From the sequence record SRR20825006_483: a stretch of 38,562 nucleotides of DNA. One strand, written 5' to 3'. The translations under genes and the position numbers were made by a program. Under the pieces are notes generated by a model. That model was given only the letters and a program-made list of their open reading frames with translations. It was not told where the DNA came from and did no database searches. Below, piece after piece: positions 9,501-24,191 of the stretch (position 1 is its first letter; every line of letters starts with the position of its first letter).

Positions 9501-9640
9501 GTATGGAAGTGTACGTCACTGGCGAACCCGCCGGATAGGATTCTCGTTCAACGGCGAATTTGAGGAACGGCACGGACTCCGCCGCACAGATTCTGCTGTC
9601 GGGAGCCAGATTCGGCGTGCGGGAAAAGCGTTCGCCGCGC

Positions 9641-9646
9641 TATAAT
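9641..9646 (+). promoter_or_regulatory. Candidate sigma70 -10 element
   Basis: Perfect TATAAT in a GC-rich divergent intergenic region, 60 nt upstream of ATG 9707. No clear -35 seen. Confidence 0.4.
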
Positions 9647-9706
9647 GATAAGAATCGAACCGCACTCGTTCCAAGTTCACAACTTCGGGCACCCACGGAG
9701 CTATCC

Positions 9707-11470
9707 ATGACCAGCGTCGCCCCATCGCAGGATCCGCACGACGAGTTGACCCAGTGGTCGCCCGAGGAAGCCAAGTCCAAAGTGGAATCGAAGGTTCGTT
9801 CCGCTCGCAGGCGAATGATGCTTGGGAAGTTTGGACGCACGTTCGCTGTAACTTGGTTTGTTGGTTTGATTGTCGCAACGATTGCGGTCGGTGCGATGGC
9901 AATCACTCCGTTGCCGCTGGATCGCTTCGGATTGGAATCATCCGAAGTTGGAGCCTCCCCGTTGACGGTGCAGCAATGGGCGATGGGATGGATCGTGGCT
10001 GCCACCGTGGTTTCCATGATTGTGTCCGCGATCGTGACGATGGTCTCGGCTCCATCGGTCATGCGAGTCGCTGCCGAAGTCGATTCTCGATTCGGATTGA
10101 AAGAACGTTTGAGCAGCGCATTGTCATCCGATGATTCGACGGATGGAAAATCCGCGGCCGGGAACGCACTCCGGCAGGATGCCGCCCGACGAGCCAGCAA
10201 GCTGGACGTGGCGGAGAAGTTTGCTTTGTCACCTCAGCGAGTTTCTTGGTTGCCGCTGGCGATTGTCCCGATTTTGGCCGTCTTGGTTTTCGCGATCGAG
10301 CCGGCAACCGAAATCACTTCCGAGCTGAACAACGAAGTCAACGCGAGCGAAGTTCGACAAGTTAAAATCGCCGCCGCGGAGCTGAAGAAACGTTTGGCTC
10401 AACAAAAGCGAGAAGCCGATGCGAAGGGCTTACTCGAGGCACGCGAACTGTTCGAGAAGATGGAATCGCAACTCGACAAGATCACCGAAAGCAAAACGTT
10501 GAAACGCAAGGACGCGTTGCTGGAACTCAACGACATCAAAGAACAAATTCAAGCTCGCAAGGACCGACTGGGGTCGCCGGAAGAGATGCGAAAGACGCTC
10601 GCTCAGATGAAGGGGCTCGATGGCGGTCCGGCCGAAAAGGTTTTGTCGCAGATCCAAAAGGGTGAGTTTGGCAAAGCTGCGGAAGAGATCAAAAAGCTCG
10701 CAAAGCAAGTGAAAGATGGCAAGCTCACCGATCAGCAGAAAGAAAAGCTGAACAAGCAAATCAAAAAGATGGCAGAGCAGATGAAAGAGGCTGCAAAGAA
10801 CCACGAAGAGAAAAAGAAGCAATTGCGAGAGAAGATCGAACAGGCCAAAAAAGAAGGACGCAACGAAGAGGCCGCCAAGTTGCAGCAGAAACTGAACGAA
10901 TCTGAATCAGCCGATGCACAGATGCAGCAAATGCAGAAGATGGCTGATGCGATGCAGCAAGCCGCCGACGCGATGCAGCAAGGCGATGAATCCGCAGCTG
11001 CTCAAGCGATGGAAGAAATGTCCAGTCAGTTGGGCGACATGCAAATGGCCATGTCCGAGCTGGAAGATTTGGAATCGGCCCTGGGTGACCTGTCGCAGTC
11101 CAAGAACCAAATGAACTGCAAACAATGCAATGGCGATGGTTGCCAAGCCTGCCAGGGTCAGGGATTTGGTGAGGGCGAAGAACCAGGGATGGGAATGGGA
11201 CGCGGCAAGGGTAAAGGAGACCGACCCGAAGAAGAAACGGACGTCAACACCTACGACACTCAGGTTCGCGGCAAGGTCAAACGCGGACGAGCAATCATCG
11301 CTGGTTTTGCGGACGGTCCCAACCGAAAAGGTGTGACCCGCGAAGACATCCAGTCGGCGATCGAGTCGAACCTCAGCGAAGAAGGTGATCCACTCGAAGA
11401 TCAGGTCTTGCCTCGTGACGAACGTGAACAAACCCGTGAATACTTTGATCGATTGCGAGAGGGTTCATGA
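9707..11470 (+). CDS. Membrane-anchored long coiled-coil protein with tandem CxxCxGxG motifs
   Basis: Start at ATG 9707 with GGAG upstream (ORF track starts at 9560). Three N-terminal TMs, a K/E/Q-rich coiled coil, CKQCNGDG-CQACQGQG, a Gly-rich linker, and C-terminal LPRDEREQTREYFDRL. Confidence 0.8.
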   Translation: MTSVAPSQDPHDELTQWSPEEAKSKVESKVRSARRRMMLGKFGRTFAVTWFVGLIVATIAVGAMAITPLPLDRFGLESSEVGASPLTVQQWAMGWIVAATVVSMIVSAIVTMVSAPSVMRVAAEVDSRFGLKERLSSALSSDDSTDGKSAAGNALRQDAARRASKLDVAEKFALSPQRVSWLPLAIVPILAVLVFAIEPATEITSELNNEVNASEVRQVKIAAAELKKRLAQQKREADAKGLLEARELFEKMESQLDKITESKTLKRKDALLELNDIKEQIQARKDRLGSPEEMRKTLAQMKGLDGGPAEKVLSQIQKGEFGKAAEEIKKLAKQVKDGKLTDQQKEKLNKQIKKMAEQMKEAAKNHEEKKKQLREKIEQAKKEGRNEEAAKLQQKLNESESADAQMQQMQKMADAMQQAADAMQQGDESAAAQAMEEMSSQLGDMQMAMSELEDLESALGDLSQSKNQMNCKQCNGDGCQACQGQGFGEGEEPGMGMGRGKGKGDRPEEETDVNTYDTQVRGKVKRGRAIIAGFADGPNRKGVTREDIQSAIESNLSEEGDPLEDQVLPRDEREQTREYFDRLREGS

Positions 11471-12072
11471 ATCGCGGCAACGTCTTGATGGTTGTTGTCG
11501 TTGTAGTGGGATGCGTTTGGCGTGGGTTGTGGCTGTCCGCCGGCGTGACCAATTCCACCTCGGTTGCCGACGTGACTCGCACCGAGTTGCTCCGCCAAAT
11601 CACTGATGAACTGAAGACACGCGGACATGTCTCCGGTCCGCAGAACCTGCATAGCGTTCAGGTGTTGGCGTATTTTGGTGATGCCAGCTCGACAGAGCCA
11701 TCGGTTGCTGCATCTCGATCATGGAAGCTTGATTCTGTTCAGCGATTCGATCCCAACGCGGAAGTGTGGATCGTGTCGGGTGCCGATGGCAAACCAGGTT
11801 GGGACGGCTGGGATGATAACCAAAATGGCACGGTCGACGACTTAAGCGAACTTGGTGCCGCATGGAGCGATGACCATTGTTTGACACCGCTGGATTCGGG
11901 GTACAAACAAGTCGATCCCGTCTATTCGCGGATCATCAATCGCGGAACGTTTGTCCCCTCCGACTTCGAATCTTTCGCGGCGGATCATTCTTTTGACCCG
12001 GACGAAAGCGACCACCAACCACATTCGTGGCGAGTGACGTTCGTTGATCAGGCCGCAGCCGAGCTCCGCTGA
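11467..12072 (+). CDS. Hypothetical exported/membrane-anchored protein with acidic Ca-binding-like motif
   Basis: ATGA overlap with the upstream gene. N-terminal hydrophobic segment and GADGKPGWDGWDDNQNGTVDDLSELG. Confidence 0.75.
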   Translation: MNRGNVLMVVVVVVGCVWRGLWLSAGVTNSTSVADVTRTELLRQITDELKTRGHVSGPQNLHSVQVLAYFGDASSTEPSVAASRSWKLDSVQRFDPNAEVWIVSGADGKPGWDGWDDNQNGTVDDLSELGAAWSDDHCLTPLDSGYKQVDPVYSRIINRGTFVPSDFESFAADHSFDPDESDHQPHSWRVTFVDQAAAELR

Positions 12073-12824
12073 GCAGCTGTTTCAGAAGTCCAAGCTTGGC
12101 GTTGTTGATCCAGCCGATGGATCGTTCGTTCGTCGATATGTTGACATCTTTCGCGTGCTCCCCATGCCAACACGACGTGCGTCCAAAACGCCAGTTGACG
12201 ATAGTCTTCGTTGGCCCATTCAGCGATCAGCTTCACGGCGTCTTCGGTGACGCGAGGTCGGAGCTGACCGGCGTGTGACAGCGCTGCTGCGAGACAACGG
12301 GCAAGCGAATCTGTGGAAACGCTCATGGTATAACTGACGCCAGAAGAGGTTTCTGGACCCATCAGGAGCAACGTCATTGGGCTGCATCGCGGATCGAGCT
12401 TCAAGGACTGCTTGTACCACTGAATCGTTGCCTGGTCGGGTGTTCCGTCGACGATGCACAACGTGTGAATGCCAAGGGGCCGATTGCTTCTTGCAATCGA
12501 CAGCCATTGCTGACAAACGTCATGGTCAAATTTTGTTGCCTCTGTTCCCAAAACGTCCAGCGGTAGATCAGCCAAACCGTGTGTTGCCATCCACTGTCTG
12601 GCCCACGTGGTTGCGCCAACTCCCGGGCAGATGTTCAACTTCGCGATTCCGACCTTGTTTCGCAGAATGGTTTCCAACCAGATCCGAGCCTGCGAATGTT
12701 CTGCGGACGCGTATAGAAACTCATCTGGCCGCGATGGAACGTTCACCGCGGGAGAATCGGCGAATGGTTGGCGGAACAATCCCCAGTGGCTTTGATCGGC
12801 CGGGCTGAGCAACGGGATCGGCAT
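12048..12824 (-). CDS. Degenerate ExeA/GspA-like P-loop ATPase homolog
   Basis: HWGLFRQPF N-terminus, PGVGATT (Walker A with Lys lost), LCIVDG (Walker B with Glu lost), LLLMGPE, and LSHAG...VTEDAVKLI follow the ExeA-family layout. ATG 12824 preferred over TTG 12899. Confidence 0.65.
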   Translation of the reverse strand: MPIPLLSPADQSHWGLFRQPFADSPAVNVPSRPDEFLYASAEHSQARIWLETILRNKVGIAKLNICPGVGATTWARQWMATHGLADLPLDVLGTEATKFDHDVCQQWLSIARSNRPLGIHTLCIVDGTPDQATIQWYKQSLKLDPRCSPMTLLLMGPETSSGVSYTMSVSTDSLARCLAAALSHAGQLRPRVTEDAVKLIAEWANEDYRQLAFWTHVVLAWGARERCQHIDERTIHRLDQQRQAWTSETAAQRSSAAA

Positions 12825-13078
12825 CGACGGCGGTCTCTCTCGGAAAAGAATCGGCTGACCCAGCGGGGAGATGCATGACCGAAGCTGACGTGGCAGCAAT
12901 CTGAGTCAAGAATCTTTGGTTGGTTTGAGGCACCACTGGGGTTCGCTAGTCAGTCAGATCGACTGACCCGCTCGCCGATCGCTTTCCGTTTCGGTTACCT
13001 TGCACCGATCGATGCAACCGGCACGATTGTACCTTTTGTCTTTTTTGTATCTTTTCGAATCCTGCTGAACCGCTCGCG

Positions 13079-13921
13079 ATGACCCGACGCTATTACGTTC
13101 CCGATCTACAAACCCAAGCACCCGTTGTGCAACTGCCTGATGAAGAGGCGTCGCACGCGTCGCGAGTCATGAGGGTGCAAATAGGTGACCGGATCGAGTT
13201 GTTTGACGGGTGCGGGCATCAGTCTGATGCGGAAGTCGTATCAGTCAGCAAACGGGAATGTGTTGTCCGGTGCGATGCGATCGAGGCCGTGGATCGGGAG
13301 CCCAGCATCGCGGTCGACCTTGCGATCGGTTTGCCCAAACCGGATCGAGCCAAGGAAATGATCGAGCGGTTGACCGAGCTGGGCGTTGCGCGTGTGTTTC
13401 CAATCGTCTTCGAAAGAACCCAGCGGCCTCCTAAGGAAAATTTTCTCGACAAGCTTCGAAGGATCGTGATCGAGTCGTGCAAGCAATCGGGACGCAACGT
13501 TCTGATGACAATCGAATCACCAATCGACTTCGTTAGCTTCACCGAGACACTTGCCGCAAGCAGCGCGACCAACGACGAGGAAGATCCACAGCCGCGTCAA
13601 TGGAGTTGGCAACGGGTGTTGGTCGCGATGCCGGACTCACCGCCGCTGAGTGCAACGGATGTTGAGCCAACCGGCGTGAGGCAAACCGGCGCGGGCCAAA
13701 CGGGCGTGGGACAAACCGACGTGGGACAACTCAACACAGGGCAATCCGGTTTGAATGGCCGACCGAGAACGCTGGCATTGATAGGCCCGGAGGGTGGGTT
13801 GTCGGAGGCGGAGCATCAGAGATGCGTCGACGTCGGAGCAGAATCCATTGGATTGGGGCGGCGGATTTTGAGGATTGAAACGGCTGCGGCGATTGTTGCG
13901 GCACGCTTGGTGGTGGATTGA
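13079..13921 (+). CDS. rsmE: 16S rRNA (uracil-1498-N3)-methyltransferase RsmE
   Basis: HASRVMR, LFDG, IERLTELGV, ESCKQSGR, LIGPEGGLS, LGRRILRIETAA. Confidence 0.95.
   Translation: MTRRYYVPDLQTQAPVVQLPDEEASHASRVMRVQIGDRIELFDGCGHQSDAEVVSVSKRECVVRCDAIEAVDREPSIAVDLAIGLPKPDRAKEMIERLTELGVARVFPIVFERTQRPPKENFLDKLRRIVIESCKQSGRNVLMTIESPIDFVSFTETLAASSATNDEEDPQPRQWSWQRVLVAMPDSPPLSATDVEPTGVRQTGAGQTGVGQTDVGQLNTGQSGLNGRPRTLALIGPEGGLSEAEHQRCVDVGAESIGLGRRILRIETAAAIVAARLVVD
13670..13744 (+). repeat. In-frame 15-bp degenerate tandem repeat (4-5 units) inside rsmE
   Basis: accggcgtgaggcaa / accggcgcgggccaa / acgggcgtgggacaa / accgacgtgggacaa / ctcaacacagggcaa, encoding TGVRQ-TGAGQ-TGVGQ-TDVGQ-LNTGQ. Confidence 0.85.
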
Positions 13922-13981
13922 TAGATATGTTCACTATGAAGGCAGGTTGCAGTTCGGGCTCGAATCGCAAGCTAGGTTTGC

Positions 13982-15382
13982 ATGGCCAACGATCTCGTCC
14001 CGCTGGGGTGGGTTGTTCGGAACCAATGCAAACAACTCCAAATGCTTGCTTCACGCATGAATGCCCTGCTAACCGACACACACAACTTCGAATCAGCCGC
14101 GTTGGGCGGTTTGTTGACGGACGATACGTTTTGGCCGGCGGAACCCCGCTCGCTGAATGAACTCGGCCTGTCGGTCAGCTTTATCGAAGCGTTGACGATC
14201 AAGTCGATTCATCAAATCGGAACCATCAGCGGTCGCAATGTGGCGACGATGATGGGATTGCCGTTTCGTTTGGTGGAACCCATCGTTGATGCGCTTCGGA
14301 CTCGCAAGTTTGTTGCTCACGTGCGACCGGCAGCGTTCAACGACTATTACTACTCGCTGACCGAACTGGGACAAAAGCGGGCGCAGACTCACCTTCAGCA
14401 ATGCAGCTACATCGGGCCAGCACCCGTGCCATTGGCTGATTACACACTCAGCGTGGAAGCTCAAGCCGCCGGTGTCGATCCCATCGAGCGAGATGATTTG
14501 CAAGCTTCACTTTCGAAGATCTCCTACCAGGACGAATTGCTCGACCAGATTGGTCCCGCGATCAATAGCAACACTGGGATGTTCCTGTTCGGTCCTCCCG
14601 GCAATGGAAAGACCACCATCGCTCGAAGCTTGACCCAGTGTTTGGGACAGGAAATCTGGATCCCCCATGCGATTCTGGATGACGGCAATTTGATCAAAGT
14701 CAAAGACGATGCCTATCACCAAGAAGCGCCTGTGCCGGAAGGCGACGGTCAGTTGTTGAAGGCGCAAGAATGGGACAAGCGTTGGGTGCGAATTCAACGA
14801 CCCAGCGTCGTTGTTGGCGGTGAATTGGTAATGGAGAACCTCGAAGTTCGCCACGATCATCGATCCAATATCTGCGAAGCACCGCTTCAGATGAAAAGCA
14901 ACTGCGGTTGTCTGTTGATCGATGACTTTGGTCGTCAACGAATTGCTCCGGAAGAGTTGCTCAACCGGTGGATTGTGCCGCTGGAAAATCGATGCGATTA
15001 CTTGACGTTGCCAACGGGTAAGAAGATTCAGATCCCGTTTGAGCAGCTCATCTTGTTCTCGACCAATTTGAACCCGGACGACCTTGTTGACGAAGCGTTT
15101 CTTCGCCGCGTCCCCTACAAGATTTTTGTGAACGACCCGTCGCCCGACGAGTTTCGGTCGCTCATGAAAACAGTCGCTTCGCAAATGGGTTTCCCTGAGA
15201 CACCCGAAGCCGCCAACCATTTGCTCGCCTACTACAAGCAAAACAATCGACCACCGCGTCGATGCCACCCGCGAGATTTGCTGACGCAGGTCGCTAACTT
15301 CTGTCGTTACCGTCGATTGCCTTTGACGTTACGTCCGGAGTACCTCGATCAAGCATGCCGTAGTTACTTCAGTGCTCTCTAG
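13982..15382 (+). CDS. AAA+ ATPase with N-terminal winged-helix-like region
   Basis: Walker A GPPGNGKT, Walker B LLIDDFG, sensor-1 FSTNL, Arg finger DEAFLRR. The true start may be ATG 14042 or 14057. Confidence 0.88.
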   Translation: MANDLVPLGWVVRNQCKQLQMLASRMNALLTDTHNFESAALGGLLTDDTFWPAEPRSLNELGLSVSFIEALTIKSIHQIGTISGRNVATMMGLPFRLVEPIVDALRTRKFVAHVRPAAFNDYYYSLTELGQKRAQTHLQQCSYIGPAPVPLADYTLSVEAQAAGVDPIERDDLQASLSKISYQDELLDQIGPAINSNTGMFLFGPPGNGKTTIARSLTQCLGQEIWIPHAILDDGNLIKVKDDAYHQEAPVPEGDGQLLKAQEWDKRWVRIQRPSVVVGGELVMENLEVRHDHRSNICEAPLQMKSNCGCLLIDDFGRQRIAPEELLNRWIVPLENRCDYLTLPTGKKIQIPFEQLILFSTNLNPDDLVDEAFLRRVPYKIFVNDPSPDEFRSLMKTVASQMGFPETPEAANHLLAYYKQNNRPPRRCHPRDLLTQVANFCRYRRLPLTLRPEYLDQACRSYFSAL

Positions 15383-15524
15383 GTTTTGTTCTAGGCGTGG
15401 CTGACCCTTCAACAGGGAATGCTCGACGTCTACTGATTTTTCGAAAGCAGCGGATTCCATCAAAGAATTCGCGCCGAACCAACTTTTCCATTCGCCGCTC
15501 AACAATGTCGTTCACAGTCGCCCG

Positions 15525-18500
15525 ATGACCGTCAAGACAACCCAAACGATCGCTCCCGGATACGAACCAATCACCGGCTACACGCTGGAGAAAAAGATTG
15601 GTGAAGGCGGCTTTGGTGAAGTTTGGTTGGCCAATGCGCCAGGCGGATTGAAGAAAGCGGTCAAGTTTGTGTTTGGTGCCAACGACGCCAGACGCGGTTC
15701 GCGTGAGCTGAAATCGTTGGAGCGAATCAAGGGAGTTCACCACCCGTTTCTGTTGACTCTGGAGCGATTTGGAATCGTGGACGATCGCTTGGTGATCGTC
15801 ACGGAACTGGCTGACGGATCGCTCGAAGACGTATTGAAACGACACCAAGACCGTGGTTCGTGCGGCATTCCCCGGGCTGCTTTGTTGTCGTATCTGCACG
15901 ATGCAGCGGATGCTTTGGATTACTTGCACGGCAGCTATCAACTGCAGCACCTCGACGTGAAGCCAGGAAATTTGTTGTTGGTCGGTGGGCACGTCAAAGT
16001 CGGTGACTTTGGGTTACTCAAAGATCTGCGAGAGATCGATCACTCGGTGATTGGCGGATTGACACCCATCTACGCTCCGCCGGAGTTGTTTGACGGTCGG
16101 CCATGCATCAACAGCGATCAGTATTCGCTCGCGGTGATGTATCAAGAGTTGTTGACCGGTACGCGTCCATTCTCCGGTCGTACGATTGCGCAATTGGCAA
16201 CGCAGCACATCCATGCCGCACCCGTGTTGGATTCATTGCCAGCAGCCGATCGTGTGGCGGTGGCGCGAGCATTGGAGAAAGACCCGGAACGTCGTTTCGA
16301 CTCGTGCAAGGACTTCGTCGAAGCTTTGCGAACGACCCGTGGTCGCGATGAGACGGCCATCCATACTTCGACCAAACCAAGCATTCGGACTCGCCAGGAA
16401 GCCGTCGAAGACTTGCCAAGTCTGAAGTCGGGAAAGGCGATGGTCCACGCCCGTGTGACGGGACACGCCTTGGTGGTCGCCGTTGGTGGCGTCGGAGCAG
16501 AATGCTTGCATGAACTGCGTAGCCGCGTTGCGACCTTGCATAGTGCATGCCCCTTGGATTTGCATTCGGTGTTGATCGACACGGACATGCATACCATTCA
16601 CGCGGCTCGTTTGGCAGAAGCATCGGACCGCATTCCGCCGGCGACAATTCTGCACACACCGCTCAAATCGGCTCAGCAATACCGCGAAGGACGGACTGAT
16701 CACTTCCGATCGTTGTCACGTCGTTGGATTTACAACGTGCCTCGCAGCGGTACGACCGAAGGCATGCGTCCATTGGGTCGGTTGGCGATGATTGATCACG
16801 CGAAAACCATCGACTCGGGGCTTCGCGAATCGATTGATCACTTGGCTGCGGTCTGTGGTGACCGGATTCCGTCGGTCTACATCATTGGTTCGCTTTCTGG
16901 TGGAACGGCGAGTGGAATGGTGATGGACTTGGCACCTCGGATTCGAACAATCTTGGATGAAGCGGGTCTGGAAAGCGCTTCGGTATTGCCGTTGCTGTCG
17001 ACCGTGTCGCTGCAGGGCAACCCGCACCAACCATTGACGCTTCATGATTCATTCGCCGCGATTTCTGAGATCGGTCACTACATGTTGCCCGAGAACAGTT
17101 ATCCCGGGGATTCCGGCGTGGACTGGTCCGGAGTTCCCGCCTCTCGAAACCCGCTGCGAAATGCGTATGTGGTCGTCGATGGCGATCACGCTCTCCCAAA
17201 ATCAGGTTCGGCCGCGGCAACGATGGTGGATTACCTGTGGGCGGATGCGACCGGTGCTGGCGAACTGTTGGCGGAAGCTAGACGAAGTGATCAAGCCGAT
17301 GCTGCGGTGCTCGCGAAACCTATGCTGCGATCGGTCGGAGTGGCTCGGCTGAAATGTGTTCGCGCATTGGAAGAGAATTTGCTCGCGCCCGCTGCGGCAC
17401 GTCACCTTTTGTTGCGTTGGCTCGGCAACCCCAATGAGTCACGTCAGATCGCAGGTCCAACAACCGAACGCTTACGAAAACGGTGCGGTCTGGACATCGC
17501 GAATTATTTGGACGAAGTGAAGGCACCGTTTGGCCAAGGCGCGGACAACATCGCAAGAAATTTGTCCGAGATGCTTTCCCGTCTATCGGTTCAGGAAATC
17601 ATGGATGGCCCACGAATCACGCGACTGTTGAAGGAAAAACTAAGCGAGTGTGATGTTTTGGATCGATTGGACCGTCGGGCGGCAACTCAAATGGTCATGC
17701 TTCGTCGCGAAGTGTCGGTCCGGATGCATGACGGACGAATCGATGTCACATCAAGCATGCAGGCCACCGAAGGATTGATGAATTGGTGTTCGGCCCAAGT
17801 CCAGGAGTTGGAACAATTCCGAACCGACTTACGCGAGCAGCAAACCGCGGTGCGGCAAAAGCTGTGCTCCGATACAGACTTGGAAAGCGAAATCGAAGCG
17901 GCTGAGAAGTTGGCGATGATGGAGTTGAATCTGATTGCATCAGAAATGGCCGGCGAACAGCTCAAAGCATTTGCAAAACGAATTGAGAATCTGCATGCGA
18001 CATTGACCAAGATGGCAGTCGGCATCGCGAAGGCCATTCGATGTGTTCCCGGTGACAATCGCGACACAGAGAATCCTTGGACGGAGATGCCGCAGGAGAT
18101 TCAGATGCGTTTCAATGCGGTACTGGAAAACCTGCATTCGCAAACCGCGTCACCTTGGTTGCTCGGTCCGTTGCGTGACGCGAAAATCGAGTGGGACGAA
18201 CAGGCGATGGCAACCGATTTGGTCGGGAGGTGTTTACCCGTCGTCGAAAATGTGATCGACGCTCATCGACAGTCTTCTGCTAGTTTGACTGATTCAACGA
18301 CCTCGTCAGCATCGGTTCTGACTCAGGATTCAGACCTAACCAATACTCGAGCGATCCCGGATCAACGCGACACCAATACGGCTCAGCTAGCCCGGACAGG
18401 TGTTTGCGAAACTCAAACATTTGAGCAACCACAGAACGGCACCTCGTTGTGGAATGAACAAACAACGATTGAATCCGCGTTGCGGGTTGCATCGCCACCG

Positions 18501-18764
18501 CTGCTGCAATGCGGCGGGCGGCAACGATTGTTGTTGTTGGTCGGAAGCGAGTCGGATCGTGAGCGTTTGGAACCCCAGGTTTCGTCCGCTCACACGGGCT
18601 CATTGACGACGGTGGTGATCCCGGGTGTGACTCCGATTTTGGTTCACGAAGCCCAGCAAATTCCGATTGATAATGTTTTGGAACAGCTGGAGTTGGTATC
18701 CGGCGGCAACACGCAGGTCAGCAAACGCTTGCACGCTCGCAGCGACGTGAACTGGAAAGAATAG
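15525..18764 (+). CDS. Ser/Thr protein kinase fused to a tubulin/FtsZ-like (Tubulin_2/FtsZl1-type) GTPase domain and a helical C-terminal region
   Basis: Kinase: IGEGGFGEV, KAVK, HLDVKPGN, DFG, APPE, SDQYSLA. Tubulin-like domain from ~16461: LVVAVGGVG, LIDTD, GMRPLGRLA, VYIIGSLSGGTASG. No obvious TM segment. Confidence 0.88.
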   Translation: MTVKTTQTIAPGYEPITGYTLEKKIGEGGFGEVWLANAPGGLKKAVKFVFGANDARRGSRELKSLERIKGVHHPFLLTLERFGIVDDRLVIVTELADGSLEDVLKRHQDRGSCGIPRAALLSYLHDAADALDYLHGSYQLQHLDVKPGNLLLVGGHVKVGDFGLLKDLREIDHSVIGGLTPIYAPPELFDGRPCINSDQYSLAVMYQELLTGTRPFSGRTIAQLATQHIHAAPVLDSLPAADRVAVARALEKDPERRFDSCKDFVEALRTTRGRDETAIHTSTKPSIRTRQEAVEDLPSLKSGKAMVHARVTGHALVVAVGGVGAECLHELRSRVATLHSACPLDLHSVLIDTDMHTIHAARLAEASDRIPPATILHTPLKSAQQYREGRTDHFRSLSRRWIYNVPRSGTTEGMRPLGRLAMIDHAKTIDSGLRESIDHLAAVCGDRIPSVYIIGSLSGGTASGMVMDLAPRIRTILDEAGLESASVLPLLSTVSLQGNPHQPLTLHDSFAAISEIGHYMLPENSYPGDSGVDWSGVPASRNPLRNAYVVVDGDHALPKSGSAAATMVDYLWADATGAGELLAEARRSDQADAAVLAKPMLRSVGVARLKCVRALEENLLAPAAARHLLLRWLGNPNESRQIAGPTTERLRKRCGLDIANYLDEVKAPFGQGADNIARNLSEMLSRLSVQEIMDGPRITRLLKEKLSECDVLDRLDRRAATQMVMLRREVSVRMHDGRIDVTSSMQATEGLMNWCSAQVQELEQFRTDLREQQTAVRQKLCSDTDLESEIEAAEKLAMMELNLIASEMAGEQLKAFAKRIENLHATLTKMAVGIAKAIRCVPGDNRDTENPWTEMPQEIQMRFNAVLENLHSQTASPWLLGPLRDAKIEWDEQAMATDLVGRCLPVVENVIDAHRQSSASLTDSTTSSASVLTQDSDLTNTRAIPDQRDTNTAQLARTGVCETQTFEQPQNGTSLWNEQTTIESALRVASPPLLQCGGRQRLLLLVGSESDRERLEPQVSSAHTGSLTTVVIPGVTPILVHEAQQIPIDNVLEQLELVSGGNTQVSKRLHARSDVNWKE

Positions 18765-18806
18765 CCAACCGCTTCTGGCAAACCGAAAAGCGTGTCAGGA
18801 AGCTCT

Positions 18807-19469
18807 TCACGCGTTGGTGTTCTGCGGCAACAGTTCCCAAAGTCGCGGATCAGCAAGTGATTCGGCGACCAAATGGACGTCCTCAAAAACGTGCGACCGG
18901 GTGTGCTCGTTCGGTACCGCAACCGTGACCGCACCGGCCGAAACCGCTGCTTTCGATCCGTTACCGCTGTCTTCTAAAACAAGCATCTCTGCTGGCGATA
19001 CTCGGAGCCGCTCGGCCGCTTTCAAGTACATTTCTGGATTGGGCTTGCCGTGAGTGACATCGTCACCGGTCAACACAAACGCCAGATCGTCCGACCATTC
19101 GGTAGTCGGCAAGATCATGTCAACGAACTTTCGACGACTGCTGGTGGCTAAACCGAACGGCAGTCCACTGGTTCGCAAACGCTCGATCCATTCCGCCAGA
19201 CCTGGCATCGGTCGAAGTTCTCCGAGCAAGAGATCGCCGTAGACATCATCGGACTCGGCGAGCAAAGACACCGGGTCGTCATCCAATTGGTGGTGATCGA
19301 TCATTTGACCAACAGCGGACAAACCTACCCGCCCCATCATCTTCTGTTGCAGTTCCAATGTGAACGTGTGACCGCGACGTTCCATCAACACTTGACCGAC
19401 CTGGAAATAAATTCGCTCGGTGTCGAACAACAGCCCGTCCATGTCCAACGCAACGCCTCGAAGATGCAT
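18807..19469 (-). CDS. HAD-family hydrolase (beta-phosphoglucomutase-like, subfamily IA)
   Basis: ALDMDGLLFDTE, LATSS, GKPNPEMY, LEDSGNG. Start at ATG 19469 with GGAG SD; the upstream extension to 19964 overlaps the MMPL gene and is spurious. Confidence 0.92.
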   Translation of the reverse strand: MHLRGVALDMDGLLFDTERIYFQVGQVLMERRGHTFTLELQQKMMGRVGLSAVGQMIDHHQLDDDPVSLLAESDDVYGDLLLGELRPMPGLAEWIERLRTSGLPFGLATSSRRKFVDMILPTTEWSDDLAFVLTGDDVTHGKPNPEMYLKAAERLRVSPAEMLVLEDSGNGSKAAVSAGAVTVAVPNEHTRSHVFEDVHLVAESLADPRLWELLPQNTNA

Positions 19470-19483
19470 GTTCACTCCAGATT

Positions 19484-21811
19484 TCAATGTGAGTTTGTCA
19501 GACGGTCGACCGCGACAATGGCAGCGGGCAATAACGTGAGGTTGATCAAAGCGGACGCCGCCAATGTCGCAGCGATCAACATGCCAAAGGTGGCGGTGGG
19601 GATGAAGGGACTGGTCATCAAAATGCCAAACCCAATCACCAATGCCAATGTCGCCAGCAAGATCGGAGTCGCCACATCCGTCGCCGCTTCCGTCGCGGCC
19701 ACCACCACATCCACACCCGCGGATCGTCCACGCTGATAGCCCGCAAGGAAGTGGATCGAACCGTCGATGGACAAACCGATGGAGACCGCACCAATCATGG
19801 CGGATCCTAGATCCAAGCCTCCGCCGGCAAGTCCCATGACAGCCAATACCAACATCACCGGCAACGTGTTCGTCAGCAATGCGACGAGAGAGTATCGCAG
19901 GTTGCCGGTCGCGATTCCGATCAATATGCCGACCAAGGCCAGAGCGATCGCCAAGGCTTTCCATTGGTCGCGAAGCAAACTGCTGACGAGTTGAGACATC
20001 AGAACGGAGTAACCGGTAACGAGTGCTCGCTCATCAAACTTTTGGGCCAATTGCGAGACTTGATCGATGAGTTCTCGCTTCACTTCGCCAGGCAGGCTTT
20101 CTTCGCTTCGCAGCATGATTCTCAGTTCTCGTGTCTCACCTTCCTTTGGTGGATCAAACGTCAACAGAGCGTCAGCGAAAGTGGGAATCGCGGTTCGCAT
20201 GCCTGCCAAGCGAACTTCGGGGGTCACGATGGATAGCAGTGGACTTTGAGCAGCAACTCCGTCCGCATCCGCTAGTGACAAGACCTTCGTCAGGCGATGA
20301 ATTTCGCCGGTCGAGGAATCAACAACTTCCAGTTCACGCAGTTTGGTCTCCAAACTTTGAACTCGAGACACGTAGTCCGGCGAAATGGTTTCTGGTGCGG
20401 GAAGTACAACGTCCCATACCCCCGCTCCGCCCAACTGTTGCTCCACACGAGCATAAGCCTGAACGATATTGCTGGTTTCTCGAAAGTTGCTTAGGAAGCT
20501 GGTTTCGGTTCGCAGTTGAGTGACCATCGTTGTGCTTACGATCAGAGCAAAGATGGAAACGATCGACAAAAGATTGCTGTGACGCAGGCTGACTGACACC
20601 AAGTGAACGAGAAATCTTTCTGAGAGACTGGGTGCTCCGGTGGGGTGCGTTGGTTCAGGCGGAGTTCGTTTACCCGATGGCAGGCTCATCAACGCCGCGG
20701 TGAACCAAACCAATGCGGCAACAATCGCCAATGCGGCAACAGCGGTCATCGTGCCAAATTGCTGAACCGGTCGCACTTTCGAGTTCAACAGCGAAGCGAA
20801 TCCGGCCGCATCCGTCAGGCAGGTCCAGAGAATGGGAATCGCCAGAAACGCAGTGACTCGGACGATCGATTCATTGGCGGGGGATTCACCTGACTCGTTG
20901 GAGTTGTCTCGCGAACGGACTCCGATATGCATGACAGCGGCGACTACGATGACCGCGATGATGGCGATCAAAATGGTTGAGACCAAAGACATTTCCATTC
21001 CCAACGCGACGATGGATGCTCTCGTGCAAAGTGTCGCCCATACGATTGCCAGGGTGGCCAGAAGGACAACGCGATAATCGCGAAGCGTCAACAGCATTAT
21101 CAGGCTCAGCAGACCGATCGTGCCCAACGCCAATCGATTACCATCAGCTTGGATCATGTCAAAAGCATCATCGAGCAGCACGGGTTCACCTATCAGAACC
21201 GGGGCTCGTTGAGAAGGAATTTGATCAGCAAGCCGTCGCAATTCTGCAATGGCTGATTCGGTCTGCCCAGGTTGAAGCATCGCCACAATCGCAGCGGTCT
21301 TCTCGTCCTGCCCATGGGTGTACCCCGCAAAGAGATCCCGAAACGAATTCGCGACCGGATCGTCTTTCGCTAGCATCTTTGACGGAGGCGGCGGAGCTTC
21401 TGAACCAGATGGAAGCGATCCTGCTAGGAACGAAAACTGTGGCCGGATGTAAGTAAACGCCTGGACCAATTTCGAGACTGACAAAACGCCTCGAACGCCA
21501 TCGATCGATTCAGCAGAGTTGGTCCACGTTCGATTCCGGGCGACTCCTTCAGGGGTCATCAATTCGGCGTCATCGTAGACCAACATGACGACCAAATTGC
21601 CGCCAAAGGTTTGCTGCAGATGCTGATACTGATTCAGCGTTGGATCGGTTGGAGAAAACATCGCCGCCAGGGAACGGTCCATCCCCAGGTCTGTCTGGTA
21701 GATCGCCAGCGGGATCGCCGACAGACAACCGATGAGGAATAACCACCAACGCCAAACCCAAAGCAATCGAGCCAGAGTGTATCGTGGCGACGCGATCAGC
21801 GAAGTTTTCAC
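19484..21811 (-). CDS. MMPL/RND-family membrane transporter
   Basis: Two repeats of TM + large loop + 5 TMs; CLTDAAGFASL, VQQFG, SIGLSIDGSIHF, TATFG, NLTLLPA. GTGA overlap with lspA. Confidence 0.88.
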   Translation of the reverse strand: MKTSLIASPRYTLARLLWVWRWWLFLIGCLSAIPLAIYQTDLGMDRSLAAMFSPTDPTLNQYQHLQQTFGGNLVVMLVYDDAELMTPEGVARNRTWTNSAESIDGVRGVLSVSKLVQAFTYIRPQFSFLAGSLPSGSEAPPPPSKMLAKDDPVANSFRDLFAGYTHGQDEKTAAIVAMLQPGQTESAIAELRRLADQIPSQRAPVLIGEPVLLDDAFDMIQADGNRLALGTIGLLSLIMLLTLRDYRVVLLATLAIVWATLCTRASIVALGMEMSLVSTILIAIIAVIVVAAVMHIGVRSRDNSNESGESPANESIVRVTAFLAIPILWTCLTDAAGFASLLNSKVRPVQQFGTMTAVAALAIVAALVWFTAALMSLPSGKRTPPEPTHPTGAPSLSERFLVHLVSVSLRHSNLLSIVSIFALIVSTTMVTQLRTETSFLSNFRETSNIVQAYARVEQQLGGAGVWDVVLPAPETISPDYVSRVQSLETKLRELEVVDSSTGEIHRLTKVLSLADADGVAAQSPLLSIVTPEVRLAGMRTAIPTFADALLTFDPPKEGETRELRIMLRSEESLPGEVKRELIDQVSQLAQKFDERALVTGYSVLMSQLVSSLLRDQWKALAIALALVGILIGIATGNLRYSLVALLTNTLPVMLVLAVMGLAGGGLDLGSAMIGAVSIGLSIDGSIHFLAGYQRGRSAGVDVVVAATEAATDVATPILLATLALVIGFGILMTSPFIPTATFGMLIAATLAASALINLTLLPAAIVAVDRLTNSH

Positions 21812-23297: not shown

Positions 23298-24191
23298 TCA
23301 AGAGTGGAAGTTGTAGTCCTTGTTGTACGGATCGAAATCCGCATCGGTCAGTCCAACATTGACCTTCAGATTGAGGTAGTTGTACTCCTCGATCACTTCG
23401 CCGCGTCCGTCAGCATTGTTCGGCCAGTCATAGGCGATGTAGCGGATCGGCATGTCCAGTTCGTCGTCCATGAATACTTGAGCGGTATGGAATTCCGCAT
23501 CCGGACGACGGGTGGGTTGGGTCAATTGAAGCACGGTGCACGAACGATCTTTCAGCCGGGCGCCTTTGCGGAATTCTGCGTGGACGTCTTCGAATTGCAG
23601 AGCCTTTTCGCCTCGTTCGATCAGCTTCAAAATCATGTTCTCGACACCGATTTCGGTCATCGGATATCGCTGGCCACGCATGGCAAGCATCCCGGTTGGC
23701 GGAATGGAGACGGTCGGCAAGAAGCGGCCTTTGAAGCCGCCTTCGTGAGCGACAATGTTGCCATTGTTTTGATTCTCAACGTAGATGACTTCGCGACCTT
23801 TCACCGAGCTTGGTTTCAGGAACGACAGGTAAACGCTGAACGGTTGCACCAGACGACCATTGGCCTCTTTGCGGTTGCGAACCTTGATCGACATGTATTC
23901 GTGTTCGCCAACAGTGTCACCGATGCGTTCCCGTTTGACCAGGATCGCCGTGTAATCGTTGACTTCCGTTTTGGAACGCGTCAGCGATTGACGAGCCATT
24001 TCCAAGCCACGAACTAAGTCGGCTTTCGCGGAACTGACCGGGGCAGCTTTTTGTGCGGATAGGGCGGCGTTGGCAACTCGGTGAACCGGCTTGGTCCACT
24101 GGGGGTCTTGCCCAAAGAGAGTTGATTGAGAGAGTCCACCGGCCAGCAGTCCGCCGGCGAGTCCCAAAAATTGACGACGGGGTGTATTCAT
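23298..24191 (-). CDS. Tat-exported DUF1571-like protein
   Basis: Twin-Arg signal PRRQFLGL. DYTAILVKRERIG, VYLSFLKP...GREVIY, RYPMTEIG and EEYNYLNLKVNVGLTDADFDP match the planctomycete DUF1571 family as I recall it. Confidence 0.8.
   Translation of the reverse strand: MNTPRRQFLGLAGGLLAGGLSQSTLFGQDPQWTKPVHRVANAALSAQKAAPVSSAKADLVRGLEMARQSLTRSKTEVNDYTAILVKRERIGDTVGEHEYMSIKVRNRKEANGRLVQPFSVYLSFLKPSSVKGREVIYVENQNNGNIVAHEGGFKGRFLPTVSIPPTGMLAMRGQRYPMTEIGVENMILKLIERGEKALQFEDVHAEFRKGARLKDRSCTVLQLTQPTRRPDAEFHTAQVFMDDELDMPIRYIAYDWPNNADGRGEVIEEYNYLNLKVNVGLTDADFDPYNKDYNFHS

Follow-up and report, generated by a model that had tools for sequence, protein, structure and literature searches.

The window analysed here is a stretch of 38,562 nucleotides from sequence record SRR20825006_483, and its source organism is Rhodopirellula. 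We describe a gene within it that encodes a serine/threonine kinase fused to a tubulin/FtsZ-like domain of the FtsZl1 (Tubulin_2) family, together with the AAA+ ATPase gene that directly precedes it. The positions of both genes and of the parts of the fusion protein are compiled in Table 1. The open reading frame (ORF) of the fusion gene is uninterrupted and its product matches both the Pkinase and the Tubulin_2 families, as an original prediction made from the DNA letters had proposed for this position. All of the motifs quoted in that prediction are present in the translation, with HLD at H142-L143-D144, glycines G321, G322 and G324 within VAVGGVG, IDTD at residues 351–354, RPLGRLA at residues 415–421 and SLSGGTASG exactly where it had been placed. 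The Pfam Tubulin_2 profile (PF13809) matches residues 316–551 with an expectation value (E) of 1e-17 and a score of 64.9 bits, where the gathering score is 27, over profile positions 1–268 of 356, and no match to PF00091, FtsZ_C or Tubulin_C was found in the fusion protein by Pfam scan at E<=1.

Table 1. Coordinates of the two genes and of the parts of the fusion protein.
Feature	Position in window	Strand	Basis
Kinase::FtsZl1 (Tubulin_2) fusion gene	15525..18764	+	open ORF, 1079 residues
Hanks-type Ser/Thr kinase domain, non-RD (HLD), residues 19–257	15579..16295	+	Pfam Pkinase, E 3.9e-29
Tubulin/FtsZ-fold nucleotide-binding domain plus first beta-alpha unit of second domain, residues 316–633	16470..17423	+	Pfam Tubulin_2, Foldseek and VIA matches
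T4-type signature loop SLSGGTASG, residues 456–464	16890..16916	+	translation
Predicted long helical insertion, residues ~635–925	17427..18299	+	AlphaFold2 helices, model residues 341–628, pLDDT mostly >90
Predicted disordered Ser/Thr-rich loop, residues 926–977 (52 residues)	18300..18455	+	pLDDT <50
Predicted C-terminal alpha/beta domain, residues 981–1079 (~100)	18465..18761	+	model residues 686–784, model and VIA alignment spans
AAA+ ATPase gene	13982..15382	+	ORF as listed 466 residues; conserved protein 441 residues from nucleotide 14057

Conservation and precedent of the fusion protein

The fusion protein is 97% identical to its match in R. europaea 6C. Pkinase and Tubulin_2 occur together in 119 of the best 120 of 678 homologues, and many orthologues are labelled 'Tubulin-like protein' in public records. 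Some relatives of about 800 residues (P0172, P0186, P0203, P0206, P0209, P0210, P0216, P0237, P0241, P0250 and P0260), in which the tubulin-like domain starts at about residue 1–36, may be forms without the kinase, split genes or fragments of genes.

Residue conservation was assessed in a main alignment of 84 full-length orthologues that are 41–86% identical, and in a broader alignment of 96 relatives that also served as input for the structure model. Unless stated otherwise the values below refer to the main alignment. The kinase domain is the most conserved region of the protein, with a mean identity of 0.80, compared with 0.52 for the tubulin-like N-domain, 0.51 for the C-terminal domain and 0.23 for the helical insertion. 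The Gly-rich loop, K47, E61, H142-L143-D144, K146, N149, D161-F-G163 and A184-P-P-E187 are invariant or nearly so, and the full Hanks set (Gly-rich loop, VAIK lysine, alphaC glutamate, HxD, DFG and APE motifs) is intact. HLD stands in place of HRD in all 84 orthologues, which makes this a non-RD kinase. The tubulin-like domain contains invariant residues at G321, G322, G324, D352, R415, L417, G418, R419, G459, G460, G464, D468 and R586, and T461 and S463 are conserved at 90% or more. Since residues of the T1 and T4 loops are invariant or nearly so, the tubulin-like motifs are not a chance resemblance. G321 and G459 (G26 and G164 of the 784-residue construct used for modeling) are also invariant in the 96 broader relatives, where the consensus of the signature loop is GGTGSG; on this comparison GGTASG is a local variant of the wider-family motif. 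The loop at residues 926–977 has an average serine plus threonine content of 27%, against 9–14% in the folded parts, and its length ranges from 1 to 86 residues. The assignment to FtsZl1/Tubulin_2 with an intact non-RD kinase is thus borne out by a profile score above the gathering level and by conserved catalytic motifs.

The fusion as such is already known and has been in print since 2010, so the earlier statement that the family and its links to kinases had been described computationally is correct. FtsZl1 was defined by Makarova and Koonin, whose text attributes an extra N-terminal kinase domain to four planctomycete members and names Rhodopirellula baltica in an alignment legend (PMC2875224). 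The planctomycete branch outlined there has the same architecture as the present protein: the N-terminal kinase precedes an FtsZ-like nucleotide-binding domain, which is followed by a long helical stretch and then by a C-terminal domain. According to the passages on FtsZl1, neither T6-H7 nor a tubulin-like domain at the C-terminus could be recognised, and a direct role in division was judged unlikely (PMC2875224). The kinase-FtsZl1 fusion is mentioned again in the text of Santana-Molina et al. from 2023 (PMC9871819), and according to the relevant part of a 2024 kinase survey, cytoplasmic planctomycete kinases are joined most often to the tubulin-like domain (PMC11032199). What is added here is incremental and computational: the split-fold model, a quantified AAA+ linkage, the patchy distribution and, for this clade, the unlinking of an FHA-EAL gene; the neighbouring genes may already be listed in additional files to the 2010 study.

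Structure model of the tubulin-like region

An AlphaFold2 model of residues 296–1079 (784 residues), built on the 96-sequence alignment, has a mean predicted local distance difference test score (pLDDT) of 89.3 and a predicted template modeling score of 0.75, with disorder confined to residues 926–977. When the model was compared with the PDB using Foldseek, the matches listed were almost all CetZ, FtsZ, tubulin, TubZ and BtubA (probability 1.00, E 3e-5 to 7e-4), with TM-scores by target of 0.33–0.46 for these tubulin-superfamily matches. Together with the Tubulin_2 profile match, this places the middle domain in the tubulin/FtsZ fold rather than in an unrelated Rossmann fold, the outcome that had been set against the original prediction. 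A profile search of the orthologue alignment against PDB sequences returned kinases only, as most rows of the alignment carry the kinase domain.

The VIA alignments extend from model residue 17 as far as residues 769–784, and are matched to chain residues 1–340 in CetZ and 1–413/423 in the tubulins. The N-terminal part of the model is too small to account for that many aligned residues, and therefore the greater part of the second tubulin domain must come from residues 981–1079. The C-terminal ~100 residues thus appear to complete the tubulin fold in the model, with the helical insertion of ~290 residues and the Ser/Thr-rich loop lying between. The elements of the model follow the order strand (model residues 305–313), helix (319–338), helices (341–628), disordered loop, strand, helix, strand, strand, helix, helix. 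Placed by alignment ranges and by this secondary-structure order, we infer that they correspond to tubulin S7-H9-[insertion]-S8-H10-S9-S10-H11-H12. In distant orthologues the matches come in two pieces, the N-domain and then separately the C-terminal ~100 residues, with nothing in between, and the placement agrees both with this pattern and with the conservation of the C-terminal domain, which equals that of the N-domain. The second tubulin domain would accordingly be divided in the model by an insertion of about 345 residues made up of a helical arm and the Ser/Thr-rich loop. The original prediction had described some 450 helical residues after the tubulin domain; about 290 of these (residues ~635–925) are indeed modeled as helical, but the remainder is a disordered loop and then an alpha/beta domain of about 100 residues.

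Whereas the FtsZl1 passages of the 2010 paper place no C-terminal tubulin domain (PMC2875224), the present model does, and a split fold offers a reason why T6-H7 and this domain were missed. In comparison with the CetZ, FtsZ, tubulin and BtubA structures (3zid, 4b45, 5zue, 2bto and 5o09), to which it is only 8–16% identical, the fusion protein carries about 345 inserted residues in the second domain and a kinase at the N-terminus; it also differs from them in giving no PF00091 match and in the lack of a conserved acidic residue found in the presumed T7 loop. That loop (residues 588–599) was assigned by secondary-structure order only.

The upstream ATPase, the FHA-EAL gene and the distribution of the family

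A conserved partner gene upstream of the fusion, not noticed in the original prediction, encodes an AAA+ protein with a winged-helix-like domain at the N-terminus and an AAA+ module after it (model pLDDT 87.4), in which Walker A, Walker B, the arginine residues and the AAA+ fold are all present. This protein is more conserved than the fusion protein: in five loci its identity is 87–88% where that of the fusion is 65–66%, in one further locus the values are 77% and 55%, and across named genera it is 73–88% identical. Adjacency was counted in 99 Pirellulaceae genomes that have the tubulin-like gene. In at least 61 of them the AAA+ gene immediately precedes it in the same orientation; in a further 7 it has the same orientation but lies 4–5.5 kb upstream, and in 2 it is close by on the opposite strand. 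The figure of 61 is a lower bound, as the comparison covered the best 101 of 321 AAA+ matches and many of the contigs are short. The AAA+ family, which is multi-copy, is present in 134 of 151 Pirellulaceae genomes; among 301 sampled Planctomycetota it was found in 18, comprising 2/2 genomes of one family (f1), 15/15 of another (f4) and 1/284 of the remainder.

The nearest complete genome (G001) contains an AAA+ paralogue, 49% identical to the upstream ATPase (L095:5099-6985 = C1:5079098-5080984), with an N-terminal extension of ~200 residues. It adjoins genes for a PSCyt1 (planctomycete cytochrome c) protein and a polyphosphate kinase, with no protein kinase gene as neighbour, and therefore the AAA+ family as a whole is not tied to kinases. 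This extended type is the one found in the 15/15 genomes of f4. With respect to known proteins, the upstream ATPase is 14% identical to Q8U0N8 of Pyrococcus furiosus (PDB 8p49), which has no known function, and it differs from LonB-type AAA+ modules in having no protease domain. A spastin/katanin-like 'severing' activity was considered for it and dropped after fold searches. That reading had rested on matches to the P-loop only: the sequence matches to spastin and Msp1 cover just 27–61 residues around this loop, spastin ranks 16th in the Foldseek search with the AAA+ model, behind 8p49, LonB, BchI and RuvB, and it is not among the 50 VIA entries listed for that model. A complex prediction that paired residues 296–1079 of the fusion protein with the N-terminal domain of the AAA+ protein (residues 20–150), run without controls, scored 0.00 against a mark of 0.34, a value that counts neither for nor against contact between the two.

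In the five more distant loci compared (L126-L129 and L006) a gene encoding an FHA-EAL protein is adjacent in all five, with an EAL-only ORF in L129. Its position in the window and in the close loci is filled by an RsmE-type methyltransferase gene (13079-13921) and an ORF without known function, and in the Rhodopirellula/Aporhodopirellula clade the FHA-EAL reader gene has therefore become unlinked. In one genome (G191) a REC-GGDEF-CBS gene (L126:6426-7925, minus strand) lies between the AAA+ and FHA-EAL genes, and may encode a cyclic di-GMP synthase belonging to the module.

The nearest complete genome is 99% complete and contains one Tubulin_2 gene (68.2 bits) and no PF00091 match, in a search that was positive in 13 of 14 control genomes, so that the claim of a lineage without canonical FtsZ holds for this genome. 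Of the 151 Pirellulaceae genomes sampled, 101 gave a Tubulin_2 match (74 of the 109 that are at least 90% complete), as did 13 of 301 sampled Planctomycetota. With the fusion protein itself as query, matches in the phylum sample were confined to f1 (2/301). Other planctomycete Tubulin_2 proteins match profile positions 1–355 at E of about 1e-50, whereas the kinase-fused subgroup matches only positions 1–270 of 356. A second genome of the same GTDB genus as G001 (G377, also 99% complete) yielded nothing with the AAA+ protein as query, whereas G001 carries two copies of it; from the tallies of 1/2 for this genus with the tubulin-like queries it follows that G377 has no Tubulin_2 match either.

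Possible functions of the fusion protein

We propose that the fusion protein is a GTP-gated signalling scaffold and not the cell's division filament, a reading that we hold to be evenly balanced between right and wrong. The tubulin-fold module would bind GTP, and its self-association or conformational change would control the attached kinase, which as a non-RD enzyme may be constitutively competent and is covalently part of the same chain. The kinase would phosphorylate Ser/Thr-rich disordered segments in the same assembly, namely the linker at residues 258–315 and the loop at 926–977. The resulting phospho-threonines would recruit the FHA-EAL cyclic di-GMP phosphodiesterase, whose gene accompanies the pair in more distantly related Pirellulaceae but has another place in the genome in this lineage, and the hexameric AAA+ ATPase encoded directly upstream would remodel or reset the assembly. 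The intact kinase motifs, the tubulin fold with its conserved nucleotide-loop residues, the AAA+ adjacency, the FHA-EAL linkage in relatives and the patchy distribution were all computed here; from these we infer GTP binding, assembly, autophosphorylation, FHA docking and AAA+ action on the fusion protein.

Several observations weigh against this proposal. GTP binding is predicted from motifs only and self-assembly is uncertain. No position in the presumed T7 loop is an invariant acidic residue, the best being 61% acidic among the 84 sequences, and the canonical polymerisation-activated GTPase may, on this alignment, be missing. AAA+ paralogues with unrelated neighbours exist, which leaves adjacency as the sole link of the ATPase to the fusion, and in 29 of the 99 genomes no nearby AAA+ copy was seen among the best 101 of 321 AAA+ matches compared. 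The FHA-EAL gene was absent from all seven close loci searched (L002-L005, L007, L008 and L010) at E<=1e-5, and a search of the window gave a best match of just E 0.016; in G001 an FHA-EAL orthologue that is 71% identical lies at C1:6880934-6882052, 1.28 Mb from the fusion gene. As this gene is not adjacent in the window or its close relatives, the three-gene logic is borrowed from more distant ones. Our literature searches on FtsZl1, Tubulin_2 and planctomycete tubulin-like kinases found no experiment on the kinase-fused branch. The original prediction had called the function of the family untested, and this stands, as far as these searches reach, for the kinase-fused members but not for the wider family: as described in the text on Synechocystis PCC 6803, interruption mutants of its Tubulin_2 gene sll0445 are viable, with impaired phototaxis and altered photosystem II fluorescence (PMC9880817). 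Sll0445 belongs to the same Pfam family as the fusion protein and is the only member with a mutant phenotype found in these searches; it differs in having no kinase domain, and its gene adjoins FtsA-like and DivIC-like genes (PMC9880817).

The original prediction had suggested a phosphorylation-controlled nucleotide switch or polymer that would act in membrane remodelling, budding or conflict, and of these the part on budding meets contrary evidence. A role as a cytomotive FtsZ-like filament, driving or organising both budding and cell division with the polymer regulated by the kinase, would suit a genome without a PF00091 match, a complete two-domain tubulin-type fold in the model and a phylum whose division machinery is described as unknown (PMC8382908). 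The distribution is contrary to this, as Tubulin_2 was not found in 35 of the 109 good-quality Pirellulaceae genomes or in 288 of the 301 sampled Planctomycetota, all of which are FtsZ-less according to the relevant part of the 2024 survey (PMC11032199). A protein that about one third of its own FtsZ-less family does without hardly qualifies as the general division machine. The genome from the same genus as G001 with neither an AAA+ match nor, by the tallies, a Tubulin_2 match points the same way, as do the lack of a conserved T7-type acidic residue, the failure to find T6-H7 that accompanied the doubt about a division role in the FtsZl1 passages of 2010 (PMC2875224) and the dispensability reported for Sll0445, the sole tested family member (PMC9880817). 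We consider a division filament improbable. Better placed, if still on the unlikely side, is a monomeric or dimeric guanine-nucleotide sensor that gates the kinase allosterically without assembling, the helical insertion being only a dimerisation or docking arm. The T7 loop just described would fit such a sensor, as would a kinase far better conserved than the other regions, and the huge insertion in the second domain might obstruct longitudinal contacts. On the other hand, the T1 and T4 loops and the C-terminal domain are conserved together; R586, beside the presumed T7 loop and invariant in 84/84 and 96/96 sequences, could act in trans; and a linked AAA+ ring ATPase is easier to explain if there is an assembly that needs dismantling.

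The kinase, NTPase and AAA+ ATPase might also be sensor and effector of an anti-phage or other conflict system, which seems to us the least probable of these explanations. The kinase domain matches the PADLOC defence-kinase models mad6 (E 2.4e-42) and PD-T4-6 (E 5.4e-38), and the AAA+ protein has a weak match to the NCBIfam model of the anti-phage ATPase IteA (29.4 bits against a cut-off of 510). The PADLOC matches are, however, confined to the generic kinase domain, and the 73–88% identity of the AAA+ protein across genera is housekeeping-like, unlike that of fast-evolving defence genes. The fusion gene is single-copy in G001 and its locus is syntenic over eight close loci; GC content is flat over the window (0.51–0.57), no tRNA was found and no mobile-element family was detected among the neighbours scanned. 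All of this looks like a stable, strongly conserved chromosomal locus.

A more elaborate form of the signalling-scaffold proposal can be drawn up, though we hold it to be improbable. FtsZl1 would have a complete but split tubulin fold whose GTP-dependent assembly in the planctomycete branch gathers the fused kinases; the loops would become phosphorylated, the polymer would dock the FHA-EAL phosphodiesterase that sets local cyclic di-GMP, and a dedicated AAA+ ring would take the structure apart. Such a system, if it exists, would amount to a bacterial 'signalling cytoskeleton' that includes a writer, a reader and an eraser. Within the tubulin superfamily no branch is more diverged than FtsZl1 or has received less experimental study, and the present gene typifies a kinase-fused group that has been known since 2010. 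Its use at the bench lies in a confident model in which the C-terminus is predicted to complete the tubulin fold and in a very strongly conserved AAA+ partner, and the absence of the protein from roughly one third of the sampled relatives points experiments to signalling rather than to essential division.

Other genes and signals around the fusion

According to the passages on gene neighbourhoods, most FtsZl1 operons include genes for a vWA protein, a P-loop GTPase or an OmpA-like protein (PMC2875224). None of these occurs among the neighbours scanned here (no vWA family in any of 17 neighbouring ORFs), and the partner is instead the AAA+ ATPase. A scan of positions 12800-19100 gave no promoter and nothing above shuffled sequences; terminator-like sites in this interval numbered 6 against 7.5 expected, with none on the plus strand between the AAA+ and fusion genes. 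Five contigs from a marine poly(A) metatranscriptome cover positions 13992-15252 and 15503-15824 at 90–97% identity; they come from a relative, transcription cannot be deduced from them, and no meaning attaches to the stretches that they leave uncovered.

Two overlapping plus-strand ORFs further upstream, 9560-11470 and 11467-12072 (636 and 201 residues), match no Pfam family. Both are kept in the R. europaea locus (L002), at 95% and 84% identity, and were not found in the other close loci. Downstream of the fusion, a minus-strand ORF for a HAD hydrolase (18807-19964) overlaps a minus-strand MMPL-transporter ORF (19484-21811) by about 480 nucleotides; the HAD domain begins only at residue 169, and therefore the true start of this gene probably lies well downstream of the first in-frame start codon. 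A DUF1571 protein (23298-24191, E 1.1e-83) is encoded on the minus strand after the thioredoxin, signal peptidase II and MMPL genes, and all of them seem to be ordinary envelope genes with no connection to the fusion.

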